64,000 bases of DNA, taken from assembly GCA_965204685.1 (NCBI GenBank), contig OZ242004.1:1226615-1290614 (forward strand), read 5' to 3'. The DNA is from Dehalococcoidia bacterium (GTDB taxonomy: Bacteria; Chloroflexota; Dehalococcoidia; Lucifugimonadales; UBA3495). Below are positions 2,147-63,553 of the stretch, in pieces. Within the stretch, counting starts at the first letter, position 1, and every line of letters starts with the position of its first letter. Under the pieces are notes generated by a model. The model saw only the letters and a program-made list of their open reading frames with translations. It ran no database searches and was not told the DNA's origin. Position numbers and translations under genes: made by a program.

Positions 2147-3049
2147 TCAATACTTCCGCAGGGTCGGCGCAGCCACGCCAAGCAACTCCTGCCGCGCAAT
2201 CGACCAGACCCGGGTCAGGGCCTGCTGAACCGCGGCGCAGTCCCGGCCGATCATCTTGACCCCTACGCCGTTGCCGTCGGGCAGCATGGAAGCGCCGGCC
2301 CGAACCTCGAGGCCCGGTTTCAGGTTAGTCCTGACCCGGTCCAGTATCGCGCGGGCGGGCGGGCTTTCACACACGATCAGCAGGGAACCCAGGGTGCGTG
2401 CGGATGCGTCGTCGGCATCCTGCGGGCTCCCGAAGCCCAATATGCCAACCCCCGTGAGGTTGCCCGCTCCCGGGTCCAGGTCGAAGGCTTCCCGGTAGGT
2501 GGGCCGGCCGCTCTGACCTCGAACCGTAACCTGGTTTGAGATCTTCCTGAACCGGAACGACTCCCCCATGGCCACCCTGCCGGGTGTTATCACGTCGCTG
2601 AACAGCAGCGCGCCGCCCGGATCGCAGGCGATGTCAACTTCCTGCTCCAGACTGGCGCCCCGGTAGGGTATCAACGGGTCCGGCAGGTATTCCAGGTACC
2701 CGCCCGGCTCGACGTTGAGGTGCACTCGCTGCTCGGCGACGCCTCCGGTCATCGTGTAGACTTTCGTGGCGCTCTGGGTGGTCACGTGGGCCCTGGCGCC
2801 GTCGCCGATGCTCACCGCGACGCGGTGCCGGTCGTTCTGGAGCAGCCCCCCGGTGGGGTTTGCCAGGAACACGTAGGCTAGGTCGGGCGCGGCCTCGTCC
2901 GGATACAGCGCCTGCTGGACCAGCAGAGGCGGCCGGGTGTGGCAGTGCGTCAGCCGGGTCCGGCCCGCTCTCCGCTCCAGAGCCAGCTCGACGGAACCGT
3001 TTTGGCCGGCCGGCCCGGCTTCAACAGACGGTTCCCGGGCCAACAGCAT
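2147..3049 (-). CDS. ureD: urease accessory protein UreD/UreH
   Basis: UreD-like sequence ([14 protein letters not shown]..., [11 protein letters not shown]) at the end of the ure cluster. Start placed at ATG 3049; the track ORF extends to 3109. Start uncertain. Confidence 0.85.
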
Positions 3050-3644
3050 CGAGGATCCTGTCCAGCACCGCGTCCAGTCCTTCACCCGTGCGGCAGTTGG
3101 TGAACGCATACGGACGCTCTCCCCGAACGATGTTGAGGTCCCGGCGCATCACGTTCAGGTCCGCGCCCACGTAGGGAGCCAGGTCGGTCTTGTTTACCAC
3201 CAGCAGGTCGGTTTGGGTGATGCCCTGTCCGCGCTTGCGGGGTATCTTGTCTCCGGCCGCCACGTCGATCACGTAGATCTGGAAATCGGCCAGCGCCGGG
3301 CTGAAGGTCAGCGTCAGGTTATCGCCGCCGCTTTCGATCAGGACGATATCCGAGTCGGGATATTTCTCGGTCAACTCCTCCACCGCCAGCAGGTTGAGGC
3401 TGGGGTCCTCACGCACCGCCGCGTGGGGGCAGGCTCCCGTGGCGACGCCGCGGATGCGGCCGGTGTCTAGAACTCCCTCCAGGGTCCGCGTGACGTGATC
3501 CGCGTCCTCCCTGGTGAAGATGTCGTTGGTAATGACCACCGGGCGCCGCCCTCGCGCCAGCAGCATAGGCACCAGTTGTTCGACCAGTGTGGTCTTGCCG
3601 GAGCCCACCGGCCCGCCGACGCCAATTCGGGGAACCTTTCTCAT
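3021..3644 (-). CDS. ureG: urease accessory GTPase UreG
   Basis: P-loop [19 protein letters not shown] and NKTDL motifs. Start is ATG 3644 (MRKVPRIGV). The 128-aa N-terminal extension in track ORF 3021..4028 is low-complexity and overlaps the Uma2 gene. Confidence 0.95.
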
Positions 3645-3702: not shown

Positions 3703-4440
3703 TCAGCTGTCCCGCAATCGTTGCAGTTCCTCCTCAAGCTCTTGAACCCTGGCTTCGGCTTGGAGGCGTGCTGCACGCTCGGCAAGGCGGCCTTCGCGCT
3801 CGGCAAGGCGCCCCTCCCGCTCGGTGTCAAAGGTGGCGATGTGGTCGCCGGTGTTGGGATCATGCCAGCGCAGGGAACCGTCGGTCCAGAGGAGTTCCAG
3901 GCCGAGGACGGCGCTGTGTCCGCTGAGGTTGCCGTCCGGCAGCTCAATGATCTCGATGGGTTCGTATCTTCCGTCCACCAGCCGGTCGCCGGCCAGGCGG
4001 GAGCCGTGGTACTGTCCGGTTTCGTCAAAACGCCAGTATTCGGCGATACCGAGAGCCGCGTAGGCAGCGCGCTTTTCGCCGGTGTCGGCGCGGCCGGTGG
4101 AGCGGGAAGCGATTTCCAGCACGAAGTCGGGCGGTTTACCCTGTTCGGATATCACGTACCCGTTGTGTTCCTCAAAAGCGATCGGATCGACGTTGAAGGC
4201 TACCAGGAGGTCGGGGTAGAGGACGCCGGTCATGTCGGCTCTTTCTGATGTGGGCACGAGGGTGATGTATCGTTCGGTGGTTACGATGGTAGTCTGTGGG
4301 TTGCCGAGGTGGAGGGCCAGGTGGTGGGCGTGCCCGGTGTCGGTCAACTGTTTGGCGGCGGTCATCTTCTCGTCCGGAGATTTGGGAGGGTCCGGGAGCC
4401 GGAAGGTGGGAGGAGATTTCGGCGATTTGGCGGTGGTCAT
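3703..4440 (-). CDS. Uma2 (DUF820) family putative endonuclease with C-terminal coiled coil
   Basis: Core [36 protein letters not shown] matches the Uma2/restriction-endonuclease-like fold pattern. C-terminus is [23 protein letters not shown]..., encoded by a tandem ~21-nt DNA repeat. Confidence 0.8.
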
Positions 4441-4527: not shown

Positions 4528-5241
4528 TCAGCTGGCGAACATCCGCACTTCGTCGTGTTCGTGCAGCATGGACGCGATGTCAGTCTGGGGCGCGAAGGAT
4601 GTCATCTCGCGCCAGTCGCGGTGCTGCAAGGCCGTCGTCGCGCCGATCACGGGTTCGTGCAGCGACCGCAGGATATGCTGCGCCTCCGAGTGGGTGACGG
4701 GGAGCAGCCGTTGCGCCGCGCCCAGGACGCCCACGGCAAAGCTGTGACAGAGCATCAGCAGTGTGCTATCCGGGTCGATGCCCGTCGCGCAGGACGCCAC
4801 GCCCAGGGCGACGGCCCCCGTGCCCGGCGTCTCCCGTTCCATTATCGCCCGCCGGAACTTGCTGTGAACGGCGCATCCGGTCGCTCCCGCGAGCAACGGC
4901 GCCGTTTCGTCCAGGATGCGCCGCCCGGCGTGGCAGGAGGCCGCCCGCAGTTCCTCGGGCAGTTTCATCGCGTGCAGGTGCCGGTCGGTGTCAACCAGCG
5001 TTGCCAGGTCGCCGTCCTGCGCAGCGCGGTGGGCATTCAGCAGCGCCACGCCGTCGCACGGCAGGATCGACCAGGTCAGCAGGTTGCGCAAGTACTCCTC
5101 CAGGTCGTCCGCATTGTTGACCCAGCCTCGCGTCACCATTCCTTCCAGACCCTGAGAGTGAGCGTAGGTACCGGACGGGAAGAACGAGTCGGCAAGCTGC
5201 AGTGCGGCGAGGAAGCTGGCGCTGCTGTCCCGGCACGTCAT
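4528..5241 (-). CDS. ureF: urease accessory protein UreF
   Basis: N-terminus LAALQLADSFFPSGTYAHSQGLE is typical of UreF. Lies immediately downstream of ureC. Confidence 0.9.
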   Translation of the reverse strand: MTCRDSSASFLAALQLADSFFPSGTYAHSQGLEGMVTRGWVNNADDLEEYLRNLLTWSILPCDGVALLNAHRAAQDGDLATLVDTDRHLHAMKLPEELRAASCHAGRRILDETAPLLAGATGCAVHSKFRRAIMERETPGTGAVALGVASCATGIDPDSTLLMLCHSFAVGVLGAAQRLLPVTHSEAQHILRSLHEPVIGATTALQHRDWREMTSFAPQTDIASMLHEHDEVRMFAS

Positions 5242-5253
5242 GGTTCACGTCCG

Positions 5254-6972
5254 CTACACCAGAAAGTGCAACTGCGCCAAGCTCAGGCGTTCCGCCGCCG
5301 GCACGGTGGCGATCTCGCCGTCCACGCGCACCGTGTAGGTGTCCGGGTCGACCTCGATCACCGGCATTCCGTCGTTGTGCACCATCTGCCGCTTGGTGAT
5401 GGCGCGGCAATTGCGCACCGGCTCCACTCGCCGGGTCAGCCCCAGGTCGCGGTGAACTCCCGCGTCGTAGGCCGCCTGGGACACGAAGGTCAGCGCCGTA
5501 TTCGCCAACGCCTTGCCCATGTTGCCGAACATGGGGCGATAGAAGGACGGTTCGGCGGTGGGTATGGACCCGTTGGGGTCGCCCATGACCGCCCAGCAGA
5601 TCATCCCGCCTTTGATGATCATCTTGGGCTTCGCGCCGAAGCTTCCCAGCGGCCAAAGCACGATGTCGGCCAGCTTGCCAGGCTCCAGCGACCCCACCAG
5701 GTGCGATATGCCGTGGGTAATGGCCGGGTTGATGGTCAGCTTGGCCAGGTAGCGCAGGACGCGGAAGTTGTCGTGGTCCGGCGAGTCCTCGGGCAGCTTG
5801 CCCTTGAACTGCCGCATCTTGTCGGCAGTCTGGAACAGGCGGGTAAAGTTCTCGCCCACCCGCCCCATCGCCTGCGAGTCCGAGGCGTACATGCTGATGA
5901 CGCCCAGGTCGTGGAGCACATCCTCCGCGGCCATGGTCTCCGGCCGGATGCGGCTCTCGGCAAAGGCCACGTCCTCGGGCACCCGCGGGCTGAGGTGGTG
6001 GCACACCATCAGCATGTCCATGTGCTCGGTGAGCGTGTTGACGGTGTACGGCCGCGTCGGGTTGGTGGATGAGGGCAGCACGTTCGGTTCCGACGCGATG
6101 CGGATGATGTCCGGCGCGTGGCCGCCGCCGGCGCCCTCGGTGTGGTAGGTGTGGATCGCCCGCCCGCCGATGGCGGCGATGGTGTCCTCCACGAACCCCG
6201 CCTCGTTCAGCGTGTCCGTGTGGATCGCCACCGGGATGTCGAACCGGTCGGCCACGGCCAGGCAGCAGTCGATGGCCGCCGGCGTGGTGCCCCAGTCCTC
6301 GTGGAGCTTGAGGCCGCTGGCCCCGGCCGCGATCTGCTCCTCCAGGGGAGCCGGGTCGCTGGCGTTGCCTTTGCCCAGCAGGCCCCAGTTGACCGGCAGC
6401 GGCTCGGCGGCCTCCAGCATCCGCGCGATGTTCCACGGGCCCGGCGTGCAGGTGGTGGCGTTGGTGCCGTCGGCCGGCCCGGTGCCCCCGCCGATCATGG
6501 TGGTGATGCCGTTGGACAGCGCGTGGTACACCTGCTGCGGCGCGATCATGTGGATGTGCGCGTCGACCCCGCCGGGAGTGGCGATCAGGTGCTCGCCGGC
6601 GATAACCTCGGTGCCCGGCCCCACCACCAGGTCGGGATGCACGCCGTCCATGACGTTGGGATTGCCGGACTTGCCCACCGCTACGATGTGCCCGTGGCGC
6701 ACGCCGATATCGGCCTTGATGACTCCCATCATCGGGTCCATGATGATGGTGTTGGTGATGACCAAATCCAGCGCGCCGTTGCGGTTGGTCGTCTCCGACG
6801 CCTGACCCATGCCGTCCCGGGCTGACTTGCCCCCGCCGAAGACCAGTTCGTCGCCGTGGGTGAGCAGGTCGCGCTCGATCTGGCAGACCAGGGACGTGTC
6901 GGCCAGGCGGAACCGGTCTCCCACGGTGGGGCCGTAGAGGTCCACGTATTGCCGGCGGCTGATTCGGGCCAT
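5254..6972 (-). CDS. ureC: urease alpha subunit
   Basis: 572 aa. [26 protein letters not shown]..., HEDWG and MVCHHL motifs. Confidence 0.97.
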
Positions 6973-6976
6973 GTCG

Positions 6977-7381
6977 TTATGCCTCGCTGGTATCTACTGG
7001 GTTCGACGGCTGGTTCAGGAAACCCCGCCTGGAGATTGCTTCGAGGGCCTGGGCGCGCACGACCGGCGAGTCCAGGCTGCCGTCGGTAAGCCCGTTGAGC
7101 CCGCGCACCCGGCGCGAGCCGCCGATGGCCACCAGCGTCACGTCCTTGCGGTCGCCCGGCTCGAAACGCACGGCAGTCCCGGACGGCACGTCCAGCCGCA
7201 TCCCGAAGGCGGCCTCCCGGTCGAACCGCAATGCCCGGTTCACCTCGAAGAAGTGGAAGTGCGAGCCGACCTGTATGGCCCGGTCGCCCGTGTTCCACAC
7301 CGACAGCGTACACGTGGGCCGGCCCGCGTTTATCTCAACCGGTTCGTCAGCGATGATGTAGTGTTCGCTGGGATTGCTCAT
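6977..7381 (-). CDS. ureB: urease beta subunit
   Basis: 134 aa. [19 protein letters not shown] and [17 protein letters not shown] motifs. No obvious Shine-Dalgarno upstream. Confidence 0.95.
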
Positions 7382-7412
7382 AACTGCTTTGACCTGTTTA
7401 TCCGGGGGAGCA

Positions 7413-7517
7413 TCAGAAGCAGGATTTGCCGGATTAGAGGATTATCAGGATTGAATCGGCGGTATCGGGAATACAAAAATCCTGATAATCCCATAATCTT
7501 GTGAATCCTGCTTCTGA
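7413..7517. repeat. nested-palindromic GGATT-rich intergenic element (copy A)
   Basis: Perfect terminal inverted repeat TCAGAAGCAGGATT (7413-7426) / AATCCTGCTTCTGA (7504-7517). Perfect inner inverted repeat ATTATCAGGATT (7441-7452) / AATCCTGATAAT (7478-7489). Confidence 0.9.
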
Positions 7518-7825
7518 CGATTTCCCGTACCAGGGCAATCGCGTCTAAATTGGCCTCCGCAGTGAAGCCGGACCAAACCACAGGCTGTAGCCGCTTTCGA
7601 GGGTCAAAACATACGCCGGTGAGGCTTGTGTTCGCCGCCTTGGAACCCAATCGGATTGAATTGCAGTATCTGGAATACCGCCGACAACAGACAATATCAA
7701 CGCACAGAATGTTTGAGCACGTTGATTATAACGACTACCGCAAGACGCGATTGCCCTGTTTCCCGTACCCGCGGGTTCCGTTTGCTTGCGGTTAGCCTCT
7801 ATGATACCATCCCCGACATTCGGCG

Positions 7826-8428
7826 GTGGCTTGGAGAATAGGGCAATTGAGCGAGATATACCATGCCAGCAACAGGGCGTTAGCCGCGGCAAAGGCTATG
7901 CTGGTGGAGCGTGACAGTGGCGCACCTGTGAACGTTCATGCTCGTGCCGCTGAGTTGAGTCGCGAGTTCGGGGTCTGCGCAAAATACATTCGTACGGTGC
8001 GGACCATGTTGCGGGAGCAATGCCCGCATGAACTGATAATCGAGTTGCGAGAAAAAGCAATCTCTGTTCCCGACGCCAAGCAGTCATTCGAGGACTATAA
8101 GCGCGGCGTCCCGGCGGACTTGCGCGGCATCTGGGTGTTCTATGTGCTCACTCCAGAAGGAGACGAAACCATAGCCAAGGTGGGAATATCCAAACGTGTA
8201 CATGGACGCATTCGCGACCTTGAATTGGGTGCAGGCCCGATGTCACTGCGCGGCTGCTGGAATTTTGGGAGCAACAGGGCTGCGGCCAAAGCGGTTGAAG
8301 ACAAGGTGATTGCGACATTCCCAAAGGCCGAAGGCGGGCGGGAAAGGATAACCAATTGGGATCACATGGCGACGCATAAATTGGCTGTTGCAGGCGGCGG
8401 ACTTTGGATCCCATCAACCACGCTTTAA
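7826..8428 (+). CDS. GIY-YIG-superfamily (T5orf172/MUG113-like) domain protein with N-terminal HTH-like region
   Basis: The C-terminal half (GIWVFYVL..IAKVGIS..RIRDLELG..AAKAVEDKVIATF..GRERI) resembles T5orf172. GTG 7826 is the longest start; the first ATG is 7898. AT-richer than the flanks by eye and antisense to the ure genes. Confidence 0.6.
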   Translation: MAWRIGQLSEIYHASNRALAAAKAMLVERDSGAPVNVHARAAELSREFGVCAKYIRTVRTMLREQCPHELIIELREKAISVPDAKQSFEDYKRGVPADLRGIWVFYVLTPEGDETIAKVGISKRVHGRIRDLELGAGPMSLRGCWNFGSNRAAAKAVEDKVIATFPKAEGGRERITNWDHMATHKLAVAGGGLWIPSTTL

Positions 8429-8456
8429 CCATTTGTAGCCGCGTATGCCCGATGCC

Positions 8457-8759
<303 letters not shown>

Positions 8760-8776
8760 GGTGGGTTGCCTCTGCC

Positions 8777-10114
8777 TTACAGAGTGGAGAGGTAGCGGGA
8801 GACCTCGTAGTCGGTGACCTCCGAGCGGTACTCGTCCCACTCCAGTTTTTTGTTCTCGATCAGGCTGTTGAAAACATGGTCGCCCAGCGCCTCGTAGAGT
8901 AACTCGCTGGTCTCCGCCAGGTTGATCGCCTCGCCCAGGCTGGACGGCAGGGTGCGGATGCCCAGGGACTGGCGACGCTGGGGTGACATCTCCTGCACGT
9001 TGCCCACCACCGGGGCCGGCACCTGGTACTGCTCCTCGATGCCCTTGAGCCCGGCGGCCAGCATCGCGCTGAAGGCCAGGTAGGGGTTGCACGACGGGTC
9101 CGGCGCACGGTACTCGATGCGGATGGACGTTTCCTCCCCCCGCTCGTAGCTGGGCACGCGGATGAGGTCGGAGCGGTTGACGTGGGTCCACGAGACGTAC
9201 ACCGGCGCTTCGTAGCCGGGAATCAGACGCTTGTAGGAGTTGACCCACTGGTTGGTCACCAGCGTTATCTCCGGCGCGTGGGTGATCAGGCCGGCGATGA
9301 ACTGCTTGCCCAGCATCGACAGGTACTGCTCGTCATCAGCGTCGTAGAACCGGTTGTCCTCCCCGGAGAAGAGCGACTGGTGCAGGTGCAATCCCGACCC
9401 GTTGATGCGAGAAATCGGCTTGGGCATGAAGGTGGCGTACACGTTCTGCAATTGGGCCAGTTCTTTGATGACCAGTTTGGCCGTCATCAGGTTGTCGGCC
9501 ATGGTCAGCGCATCGGTGTACTCCAGGTCGATCTCGTGCTGGCTGGGCGCGCCCTCGTGGTGGGAATACTTCACCGGTATGCCCATCTCGGCCAGGTTGA
9601 GCACGGTGTCCCGGCGCAGGTCGGAGGCGGGGTAGCTGGAAAGCTGGTCGAAGTAGCCGTCGTGGTCCAGCAGTTCCGGCGCGCCGGCGCTCTTCAGGTA
9701 GAAGAACTCCAGCTCCGCGCCGACGTTGTAGGTGAAGCCCATTTCCGCCGCCTTGTCCAGGTTCCGCCGGAGTACCTGGCGCGGGTCGCCGGGGAAGGTC
9801 TGCCCCCGTGGCTGGCGGATGTCGCAGAACATCCGGGCCACGGCGTTCTGGCGCGGACGCCACGGCAGCAGCGTGAAGGTGGACGGGTCCGGGTAGGCCC
9901 GCATATCGCTCTCGTGGTGGCGGGCGAACCCGTCGATGGCCGAGCCGTCGAAACCCACACCGCGCTCAAGCGCGTCCTCCAGGTCGTCGGCCGTCACCGC
10001 GAACCCCTTCAGCTTGCCCAGGATGTCGGTGAACCACAGGCGGATGAACTTGACGTCGTTGTCCCGCGCGGTACGCAGTACGAAGTCCCGGGCGGTGGCT
10101 GTCTCAGTTGTCAT
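8777..10114 (-). CDS. glnA: glutamine synthetase (type I)
   Basis: 445 aa. [18 protein letters not shown], the [10 protein letters not shown] region, and [12 protein letters not shown]. Confidence 0.95.
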
Positions 10115-13875: not shown

Positions 13876-13984
13876 GTCAGAAGCAGGATTTTCAGGATTT
13901 CGGATTTCGGGATTGACAGGATTGCGGTCATCCGGTGGCGGAGAAAACCCAATCCTGTCAATCCTTCAATCCGGCTGCTGACAG
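13876..13984. repeat. nested-palindromic GGATT-rich intergenic element (copy B)
   Basis: TGTCAGAAGCAGGATT... ...AATCCGGCTGCTGACA termini. Perfect inner repeat GATTGACAGGATT / AATCCTGTCAATC. Lies between urtA and urtB. Confidence 0.9.
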
Positions 13985-34817: not shown

Positions 34818-34927
34818 GTCAGAAACAGGATTTACAGGATTTTATGATTTGGCAGGATTGGGAACTCTCCATCACGGAACGGTTCCAATCCTGATAATCC
34901 CTGAATCTTGAAAATCCTGCTTCTGAC
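34818..34927. repeat. nested-palindromic GGATT-rich intergenic element (copy C)
   Basis: GTCAGAAACAGGATT ... AATCCTGCTTCTGAC termini, with CAGGATT repeated at ~9-nt spacing. The core GGAACTCTCCATCACGGAACGGTTCC is the reverse complement of the core of copy D. Confidence 0.9.
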
Positions 34928-34936
34928 AAAAGCCGA

Positions 34937-63331: not shown

Positions 63332-63441
63332 GTCAGAATCAGGATTTTCAAGATTTGGGGATTATCAGGATTGGAACCGTTCCGTGATGGATCTCTCTCA
63401 ATCCTGTCAAATCATAAAATCCCGCAAATCCTGATTCTGAC
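63332..63441. repeat. nested-palindromic GGATT-rich intergenic element (copy D, inverted relative to copy C)
   Basis: Perfect 15-bp termini GTCAGAATCAGGATT / AATCCTGATTCTGAC. The core GGAACCGTTCCGTGATGGA matches the reverse complement of the copy C core. Confidence 0.9.
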
Positions 63442-63553
63442 GATTCGTGCAAGTGGGAACCCCCCGAGCAGTGAGCCAGTTTGACGCCCGCCCCCGGCCG
63501 GCGTAGCATTACTTTTATCCAACCTGCTGTTTCCAGATACCCGGGAGGCGCTG

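Follow-up and report, generated by a model that had tools for sequence, protein, structure and literature searches.

Why do the genes for the gamma and beta subunits of urease, ureA and ureB, lie 1,075 bp apart in a Dehalococcoidia bacterium whose closest relatives keep them almost adjacent, and how might the genes beyond this break still be read? The locus belongs to a 64,000-nucleotide stretch of contig OZ242004.1 (assembly GCA_965204685.1, positions 1,226,615 to 1,290,614), here called the window, in which the gap between the two genes occupies 7382-8456. A first-pass annotation made from the sequence alone took this gap for one homing-endonuclease-like or selfish insertion into an essential-pathway operon. 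Empty-site and hairpin-only alleles in close relatives confirm a lineage-specific insertion of foreign, selfish DNA, but the other two parts of that description do not hold. The gap contains three unrelated elements, which are a hairpin repeat, a miniature inverted-repeat transposable element (MITE) of the ISAs1 type, and a gene cassette, and the hairpin is able to occupy the spacer alone. Urease is also not an essential pathway. We lean, without great confidence, toward the view that the spacer has collected three independent selfish elements (the hairpin, a promoter-plus-nuclease cassette, and later the MITE) while the urease genes stayed intact.

The coordinates of ureA and ureB and the distance between them are correct by the listing of open reading frames (ORFs), Pfam and NCBIfam. 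From ureB to ureA, the gap contains the following features:

7382-7402, minus strand: ureB leader of 21 nt without a Shine-Dalgarno site, in the operon sense GGATAAACAGGTCAAAGCAGTT|ATG
7403-7527: GGATT-rich imperfect palindrome, similar to a repetitive extragenic palindrome (REP) or MITE, with 50-nt arms (7403-7452 and 7478-7527) that are 80% complementary
7521-7530: left target-site duplication of the MITE, 10 bp, TTTCCCGTAC, overlapping the outer base of the hairpin stem
7531-7758: MITE, a non-autonomous transposon of 228 bp with perfect 16-bp terminal inverted repeats CAGGGCAATCGCGTCT (100% complementary)
7759-7768: right target-site duplication, 10 bp, TTTCCCGTAC, an exact direct repeat of 7521-7530 directly outside the terminal repeats
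about 7770-8430, plus strand: single-copy gene cassette of about 0.66 kb, consisting of a promoter and the gene ORF193
7782-7810, plus strand: putative ORF193 promoter (-35 TTGCTT at 7782-7787, 17-nt spacer, extended -10 TGaTACCAT at 7802-7810)
7833-7838, plus strand: putative ORF193 ribosome-binding site, GGAGAA
7847-8428, plus strand: ORF193, TTG start, 193 aa, antisense to the operon, identical to database protein P0001
8429-8456: remnant spacer of 28 nt between the stop codons of the convergent genes ORF193 and ureA

The insertion is real and strain-specific, and intermediate alleles are preserved. The closest UreC proteins (88-91% identity) come from three complete chromosomes of Dehalococcoidia bacterium metagenome-assembled genomes, which we call the sister genomes. 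In all three, the gene order is glnA-ureA-ureB-ureC-ureF-ureG, ureA and ureB are only about 22-49 bp apart, and GGAGG or GGAG precedes ureB. The ureA genes of these genomes are 89-92% identical to that of the window, and the ureB start codon is conserved. A split between ureA and ureB is not unprecedented, with gaps above 500 bp in 8 of 71 sampled loci.

The sequencing runs that bear the sequence come from one host organism and from sponge metagenomes; two of them, X1 and X2, derive from the source sample and behave as DNA (contigs up to 134 kb). Comparison of the ureA-ureB junction in relatives, which the first-pass annotation had recommended, revealed not only the three sister genomes and sponge strains without the insertion but also an intermediate, hairpin-only form. 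In the empty allele, position 7381 is joined to 8464 via 24 nt. This junction occurs in the dominant strain of X6 (depth 89), in a strain of X3 and in an RNA contig of X13, and identity of the flanks to the window is 96-97% in X6 and about 90% in X13. Read in the operon sense, it runs ureA ...CCC ATC GTC TAA - TCACAACAAGGACGAGC - ATG ureB (junction sequence ureA ...CCCATCGTCTAA TCACAACAAGGACGAGC ATG... ureB), so that a 17-nt spacer places AAGGA (or AGGGA) 5 nt before the ureB ATG. In the hairpin-only allele, which belongs to a minor X6 strain that is about 90% identical, 7521 is joined to 8456 via 26 nt. These 26 nt link the hairpin to ureA and align at about 73% identity with the 28-nt remnant spacer of the window. 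The filled allele is seen only in the window, X1 and X2. The presence/absence polymorphism thus lies at one site between collinear relatives. Every junction of the gap is tiled by independent short-read contigs from the two source-sample runs, so the filled form is not an assembly artefact. The gap is also AT-richer than its surroundings, as had been noticed at first sight, with a GC content of 0.539 against 0.643 across the window. At third codon positions, GC is 0.61 in ORF193 and 0.82-0.93 in ureA, ureB and ureC.

The element nearest ureB is a palindrome that had been placed at 7413-7517, 32 nt from the gene. It is real but larger than proposed, and its outer end at 7403 leaves 21 nt to the ureB ATG. 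The corresponding RNA folds at -64.5 kcal/mol (z = -9.4). The window contains 10 occurrences of the palindrome's core motif, against an expectation of 0.09, and these form four elements. The three other copies are located as follows:

about 13877-13983: between the urtA stop (13991) and the urtB start (13811)
about 34819-34928: between two same-strand ORFs
about 63334-63443: fourth copy

In this family, the ends are conserved (TCAGAAnCAGGATT ... AATCCTGnTTCTGA), the arms contain tandem GGATT motifs and the loop varies; compensatory changes are found at four stem pairs. Read depth over the hairpin reaches about 4,000, compared with 26-95 in the flanks, and one to two copies are present in L001, a metagenomic locus that encodes an ORF193 homologue. 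No copy has a U-tract. The hairpin sequence is abundant in metatranscriptome contigs, and an Rfam search of 6900-8900 (E <= 1) returned only spurious miRNA-precursor matches on the palindrome. An imperfect palindrome with many intergenic copies is REP-like, and the GGATT hairpins behave like REP-type intercistronic repeats that are tolerated within operons. A site after the binding-protein gene of an ABC-transporter operon is the classic REP position, and the urtA-urtB copy matches it. A role for the hairpin in mRNA stability would be only an analogy to such repeats.

The MITE was overlooked in the first-pass annotation. Read depth rises to 240-475 over exactly 7531-7758, which is 9-18 times the depth of 26 in the flanks. 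X1 and X2 also contain a second, 89% identical copy, whose ends fall exactly at 7531 and 7758. The same CAGGGCAATCGCGTCT repeat bounds 138-bp MITEs in L089 (3291-3428), where the target duplication is 10 bp, and in L126 (5876-6012), where it is 8-9 bp. In L169 (1298-1313), it abuts the end of a transposase gene with DDE_Tnp_1_assoc and DDE_Tnp_1 domains. We take this domain pair, together with CAGGG ends and 8-10-bp duplications, to mark the ISAs1 family of ISfinder. The gap element has no ORF with a Pfam family match, so its shared terminal repeats, duplication length, non-coding interior and multiple copies (by read depth and the second copy) are those of an ISAs1 MITE. A scan of metagenomes with the 16-mer terminal repeat gave mostly chance matches, yet it recovered the terminal-repeat family; it found no copy of the 228-bp MITE itself. 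A further MITE with CAGGGCAATCGCGTCT termini is present in L141 (749-1065), and those in unrelated metagenomes range from 138 to 317 bp with differing interiors. CGTAC precedes the terminal repeat in three one-ended matches (L169, L189 and the window), which may reflect a target preference. A retron or other structured RNA had been considered for the 16-bp inverted repeat at 7531/7743, and it was rejected in favour of a MITE because of the raised depth, the target duplication and the terminal repeats shared with other elements. That the duplication is intact and the terminal repeats are perfect indicates a recent insertion.

The third element is the cassette. The proposed plus-strand ORF antisense to the operon does exist. 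Its start is assigned to the TTG at 7847 from the homologue alignment and the database gene call, where the ORF listing gave a GTG at 7826 (7826-8428). Similarity to the loci of the three closest homologues (L001, L002 and L004, each 59% identical in protein sequence) covers only 7774-8413 and starts abruptly at 7774, and the block 7774-7846 is the sole upstream stretch conserved with them. Within this block, TTGCTT, a 17-nt spacer and TGnTAnnAT, followed by GGAGAA, resemble an extended -10 promoter and a ribosome-binding site, and the gene is probably expressed from them. A scan for consensus promoters and terminators called no promoter in either orientation; its one terminator-like site is weak and lies upstream of the ORF193 promoter. 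No terminator fold was detected on the plus strand between the ORF193 and ureA stops (z = -0.26). The MITE ends 15 nt upstream of the -35 element.

These observations suggest an order of events. A GGATT hairpin repeat of about 125 bp would have settled beside ureB, and a single-gene cassette of about 0.66 kb would then have entered on the ureA side of the hairpin, in antisense orientation to the operon. Its likeliest route would be recombination, nuclease-assisted or illegitimate, by which a selfish gene acquired horizontally came to lie beside a highly conserved target. The 228-bp ISAs1-type MITE would then have transposed into the site 15 nt upstream of the ORF193 promoter and duplicated TTTCCCGTAC.

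What does the cassette encode? ORF193 belongs to a very small family. A search of 5.8 billion clustered proteins found three homologues of 59% identity. Ten relatives emerged when 1.84 billion representatives were searched exhaustively with a profile, and a profile of the family added a handful more. This makes about 20 sequences in all (5.8-15 billion proteins), and none of them is named. One profile match, P0012, is an FF-domain repeat protein and was a false lead. Searches of NCBIfam, PHROGs and PADLOC gave no usable match to ORF193, and tblastn found none in 50,697 phage records or in plasmids. The first-pass annotation had likened the C-terminal half to a T5orf172/GIY-YIG nuclease domain. 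Pfam falls short of this, since ORF193 scores 15.4 bits against T5orf172 (PF10544; E = 0.027) and the gathering cut-off is 20. Weak T5orf172 matches occur in 6 of 12 family members (best E = 0.0018), and two members match MUG113.

The assignment is sustained at the level of the fold. An AlphaFold model (pLDDT 77) has an N-terminal five-helix domain (residues ~1-90) and a C-terminal T5orf172/GIY-YIG-like domain (~95-190) that is built as a beta-beta-alpha-beta-alpha unit (strands 97-103, 110-115 and 132-139; helices 118-128 and 144-157). A Foldseek search of BFVD gives 13 viral matches at E <= 1e-3 with probability 1.0. Almost all of the named ones are T5 Orf172, Bro, CapR-homology, GIY-YIG or 'Hef-like homing endonuclease' proteins, and they include an ICP1 ORF. 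Neighbours in the PDB (Slx1, HIGLE, BH0048 and UvrC) have probabilities of 0.75-0.97 at non-significant E values (0.1-4), and the family profile matches BH0048 at E = 0.045 with the motifs in register. Among 17 family sequences, Y99, K111 and G113 never vary, most members keep R121, and E151 and GG-x-E166 are nearly invariant. In the alignment with BH0048, the conserved residues fall on its YVY, YTG, RR and E positions. From the GIY-YIG-like alpha/beta fold and the conserved motif residues of the model, we conclude that the C-terminal domain is of the T5orf172 type and GIY-YIG-like, with its putative active-site residues intact. The protein may therefore be catalytically active. The N-terminal segment, which had been called HTH-like (helix-turn-helix-like), is helical as proposed, and its structural neighbours suggest an HTH weakly (E about 2-4). 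Modelled alone (pLDDT 86), it has DNA-binding domains, those of KorB (E = 1.8) and Mu transposase (I-beta, E = 2.9), as its best but non-significant neighbours, and it has no sequence match in Pfam or the PDB. An HTH-like fold is a reasonable guess, and the domain probably binds DNA.

Members of the ORF193 family occur in six different genomic contexts:

Context 1: between ureA and ureB (window only)
Context 2: between two convergent MFS genes (L001, L002 and L004)
Context 3: between Aminotran_4 (aminotransferase) and SGL genes (L210, L211 and L213)
Context 4: after CoA-transferase genes (L209)
Context 5: on a circular 47.7-kb contig with ParA, integrase, transposases and McrBC (L086 and L087)
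Context 6: in an IS66/GIY_YIG_3/PDDEXK island (L088)

The family ORFs have a GC content of 52-56%, against 58-64% in every host locus examined. A dN/dS of 0.28-0.33 at unsaturated dS (0.3-0.4) shows that they are under purifying selection. L004 was at one point taken for a separate context among close homologues, and it is the same MFS/MFS locus with an extra DUF433 two-gene module. In the MFS/ORF/MFS loci, the cassette is bracketed by direct repeats of about 100-120 bp that are 88-91% identical (5315-5436 and 6868-6982 in L002; 968-1067 and 2457-2557 in L004). These repeats are duplicated 3' ends of the neighbouring MFS genes, with a different neighbour duplicated in each genome, which suggests repeated rearrangement at this site. 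L001 and L213 both come from sample ERZ21830300, which therefore holds two family members (P0003 and P0015) of different subfamilies and contexts.

In ICP1-like, T5-like and other phages, the most frequent homing endonuclease genes are those for T5orf172 proteins, which are described as a GIY-YIG subfamily; these genes usually adjoin essential genes, and their products carry a DNA-binding domain at the opposite terminus (PMC10448857). A homing endonuclease is the best mechanistic fit to the architecture of ORF193 and to the polymorphism, and this identity is plausible. The fuller proposal is one that we consider rather unlikely. Under it, ORF193 would found a very rare, unannotated family (about 20 among about 15 billion proteins) of chromosomal, free-standing homing endonucleases that join an HTH-like domain to a T5orf172-type nuclease. 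As a 0.66-kb promoter-plus-gene unit, they would enter conserved metabolic operons in uncultured Chloroflexota-like bacteria, of which at least one is sponge-associated, and in the window strain the unit would impose convergent antisense transcription on glnA-ureABC.

Several observations weigh against homing. No family member reaches the Pfam T5orf172 gathering score, the full-length model derives from an alignment of four sequences, and nothing matches the N-terminal domain significantly in structure or sequence. The DNA-binding domains of phage T5orf172 homing endonucleases are typically of the Zn-finger CapR type (PMC10448857), unlike the N-terminus of ORF193. The cassette ends cannot be fixed to the nucleotide. 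The empty-site strains are about 4-10% divergent, so the polymorphism is not within one population. Identity to X6 is 96-97% beside the junction and 92-95% farther out, and the flanks contain no co-conversion signature or interpretable conversion tract. The six contexts are found only among distant homologues (<= 59% identity), and close homologues share a site. Synteny is stable in the MFS/MFS clade and the Aminotran_4/SGL clade (three genomes each) at about 15% DNA divergence. Together with the purifying selection within the two clades (dN/dS about 0.3), this synteny is explained at least as well by a resident and possibly host-useful gene as by active homing. The serious rival is accordingly that ORF193 is a resident DNA-binding protein or nuclease, useful or neutral to its host. 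Ordinary horizontal transfer and illegitimate recombination would have brought it to the urease spacer, which it reached by chance, and the hairpin and MITE would be bystanders. It could act in regulation, repair or defence, for example, or be a domesticated endonuclease of the kind represented by CapR of PLE, and domesticated T5orf172 regulators are documented (PMC10448857). The gene is single copy per genome, as a resident would be, and some homologues lie in islands with McrBC, PDDEXK and GIY_YIG_3 genes. On the other side, no PADLOC defence model matched, no partner gene is conserved across contexts, and the conserved unit is just a promoter and an ORF of low GC at a different place in each lineage. 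A host function is also hard to rationalise for a gene that lies antisense inside an operon, as it does in the window. We regard a resident gene as possible but doubtful.

Could the nuclease instead serve the hairpins, as single-copy REP-associated tyrosine transposases (RAYTs) serve a genome-wide family of palindromes? The hairpin does lie on the promoter side of the ORF in both the window (7403-7527) and L001 (7690-7768), and these are the only two of about 210 loci examined that have hairpins; both encode family members. But L002 and L004, which are orthologous to L001, carry the ORF without a hairpin, and hairpins are likewise missing from L086, L088 and L209-L213. The distances from hairpin to promoter differ (~16 nt vs ~160 nt), and the runs X3, X6 and X11-X16 have hairpin depths of 80-1,700 with zero ORF depth at >= 85% identity. 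Mobilisation of the hairpins by ORF193 is very unlikely on this evidence. Slighter still is the chance that the 1.1-kb spacer is ancestral and was deleted in relatives, or that it is an assembly chimera. The 28 nt after the ORF193 stop are loosely similar both to the hairpin-only spacer and to the sequence downstream of the L004 ORF, which makes a deletion origin of the hairpin-only allele conceivable. Opposing an ancestral spacer, ureA and ureB are contiguous, with a proper ribosome-binding site, in the three sisters, all outgroups and the dominant strains of other sponges; the gap is compositionally foreign; and the MITE target duplication is intact. Against a chimera, independent contigs of two runs cover all junctions. 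The stepwise filling of an originally short spacer by three selfish elements remains the reading that we favour.

The minus strand of the window carries a urea-utilisation cluster of urtA-E, glnA, ureA, ureB, ureC, ureF, ureG and ureD:

8777-10114, minus strand: glnA, glutamine synthetase, 17 nt upstream of ureA and downstream of the urt urea transporter genes
8457-8759, minus strand: ureA, urease gamma subunit, intact, 100 aa (Pfam Urease_gamma 5.5e-46, model fully covered; NCBIfam PRK13241 3e-49)
6977-7381, minus strand: ureB, urease beta subunit, intact, 134 aa (Pfam Urease_beta 4.2e-44)
5254-6972, minus strand: ureC
4528-5241, minus strand: ureF
3703-4440, minus (operon) strand: Uma2-family putative endonuclease gene between ureF and ureG, 245 aa (Pfam 2.3e-15; PADLOC candidate PDC-S03 4.6e-12)
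about 3021-3644, minus strand: ureG

The urt-glnA-ure arrangement suggests an operon for urea uptake, hydrolysis and assimilation. The Uma2 gene also escaped the first-pass annotation. ureF and ureG are only about 20-100 bp apart in the three sister genomes, and by this comparison the Uma2 gene is a second lineage-specific insertion in the urease operon. The urease genes are all intact despite the separation of ureA from ureB, which implies either continued function or a recent insertion.

The leader of ureB lacks the AAGGA site that the empty allele has, and no Shine-Dalgarno-like site lies within 12 nt of its ATG. The first-pass annotation was right on this point, although the contrast that it drew with neighbouring genes is softer than stated, because urtE, ureF and urtB are also weak in such sites. 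A 90-codon minus-strand ORF (7378-7650) starts at a TTG inside the MITE, runs through the hairpin and ends at a TGA that overlaps the ureB ATG (ATGA). It may allow coupled re-initiation that offsets the absent Shine-Dalgarno site, but it could just as well have arisen by chance. The gap contains no convincing minus-strand promoter for ureB; a perfect TATAAT occurs inside the MITE (7730-7725, minus strand) without a -35 element. Transcripts from the upstream glnA/ureA promoter would have to cross 1.1 kb of antisense and hairpin sequence to reach ureB-ureC-ureF, passing 582 nt antisense to ORF193, a putative convergent promoter, the MITE and the hairpin. No recognisable intrinsic terminator lies in this path on either strand, which makes read-through plausible. 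A 3.4-kb metatranscriptome contig spanning glnA-ureA-ureB-ureC in the relative with about 90% identity and an empty site (X13) is consistent with co-transcription of these genes there, and also with DNA carry-over. The metatranscriptomes searched contain empty-site relatives only.

The value of this locus lies in its preserved allele series, which makes both the homing hypothesis and the tolerance of the operon directly testable. Natural intermediates (empty, then hairpin-only, then hairpin with cassette and MITE) mark a stepwise colonisation of one spacer, and they supply a ready target sequence for T5orf172-type homing in a bacterial chromosome rather than a phage. The window strain is also a natural experiment on how much an operon tolerates, since ureB lacks a ribosome-binding site and is separated from ureA by 1.1 kb, a -64 kcal/mol hairpin and a putative convergent promoter. 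Urea use is thought to be important for sponge symbionts, and a strain-specific change in urease expression could, speculatively, matter to the ecology of the symbiosis. In kind, the nuclease gene (T5orf172 type), the MITE (ISAs1 type) and the hairpin (REP-like) are new, unannotated representatives of known selfish DNA and no new type of system. The gap is an instructive yet fairly ordinary example of mobile DNA accumulating in an operon spacer.

Each part of the gap has known counterparts. The predicted nuclease gene comes closest to the T4 seg genes and to free-standing T5orf172 homing endonuclease genes, which occur for example in ICP1, T5-like phages and Plateaulakeviruses (PMC10448857). 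Like them, ORF193 is a small single gene that lies between conserved genes, probably with its own promoter, and encodes two domains with the nuclease domain at one terminus. It also shares the T5orf172-like fold with conserved Tyr, Lys-x-Gly, Arg and Glu, is present or absent between close relatives, and has a GC content below that of its host. Unlike them, it is chromosomal, in an uncultured sponge-associated Chloroflexota bacterium, and its N-terminus is an all-helical bundle rather than CapR/DUF723 Zn-fingers. It also falls below the Pfam threshold and is stably syntenic in two clades, and its cleavage and homing are predictions.

The GGATT hairpin resembles the REPs and bacterial interspersed mosaic elements (BIMEs) of enterobacteria (as at malE-malF) and other hairpin MITEs. 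It is a high-copy imperfect palindrome of about 100-125 bp that sits between genes of the same operon (urtA/urtB and ureA/ureB), is transcribed within mRNAs in metatranscriptomes, and has no U-tract, so it is not an intrinsic terminator. It differs in sequence family (tandem GGATT motifs and TCAGAAnCAGGATT ends), and no RAYT or other mobilising enzyme was identified for it in the 64 kb of genome covered. The MITE shares with ISAs1 elements and their derivatives the CAGGG-starting repeats, the 10-bp duplication, the absence of coding capacity and the multiple copies. Its 16-bp repeat is identical to the one beside the DDE_Tnp_1_assoc and DDE_Tnp_1 transposase of L169. Its internal 196 bp are unrelated to those of the other MITEs with the same repeats (L089, L126 and L141), and no partner transposase was located within the 64 kb covered.

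Split ureA/ureB loci are also known elsewhere. A gap of about 1 kb with no convincing ORF separates the two genes in Paenibacillus plantiphilus (L014, 5658-6672). In rhizobial clusters (L032, L042, L043, L048 and L080), they are 0.6-0.9 kb apart, similar to the distance seen here. The rhizobial gaps that were checked hold a co-directional HupE/UreJ nickel transporter gene and DUF1272, and this content is conserved across genera, whereas that of the window gap is antisense, mobile and strain-specific.

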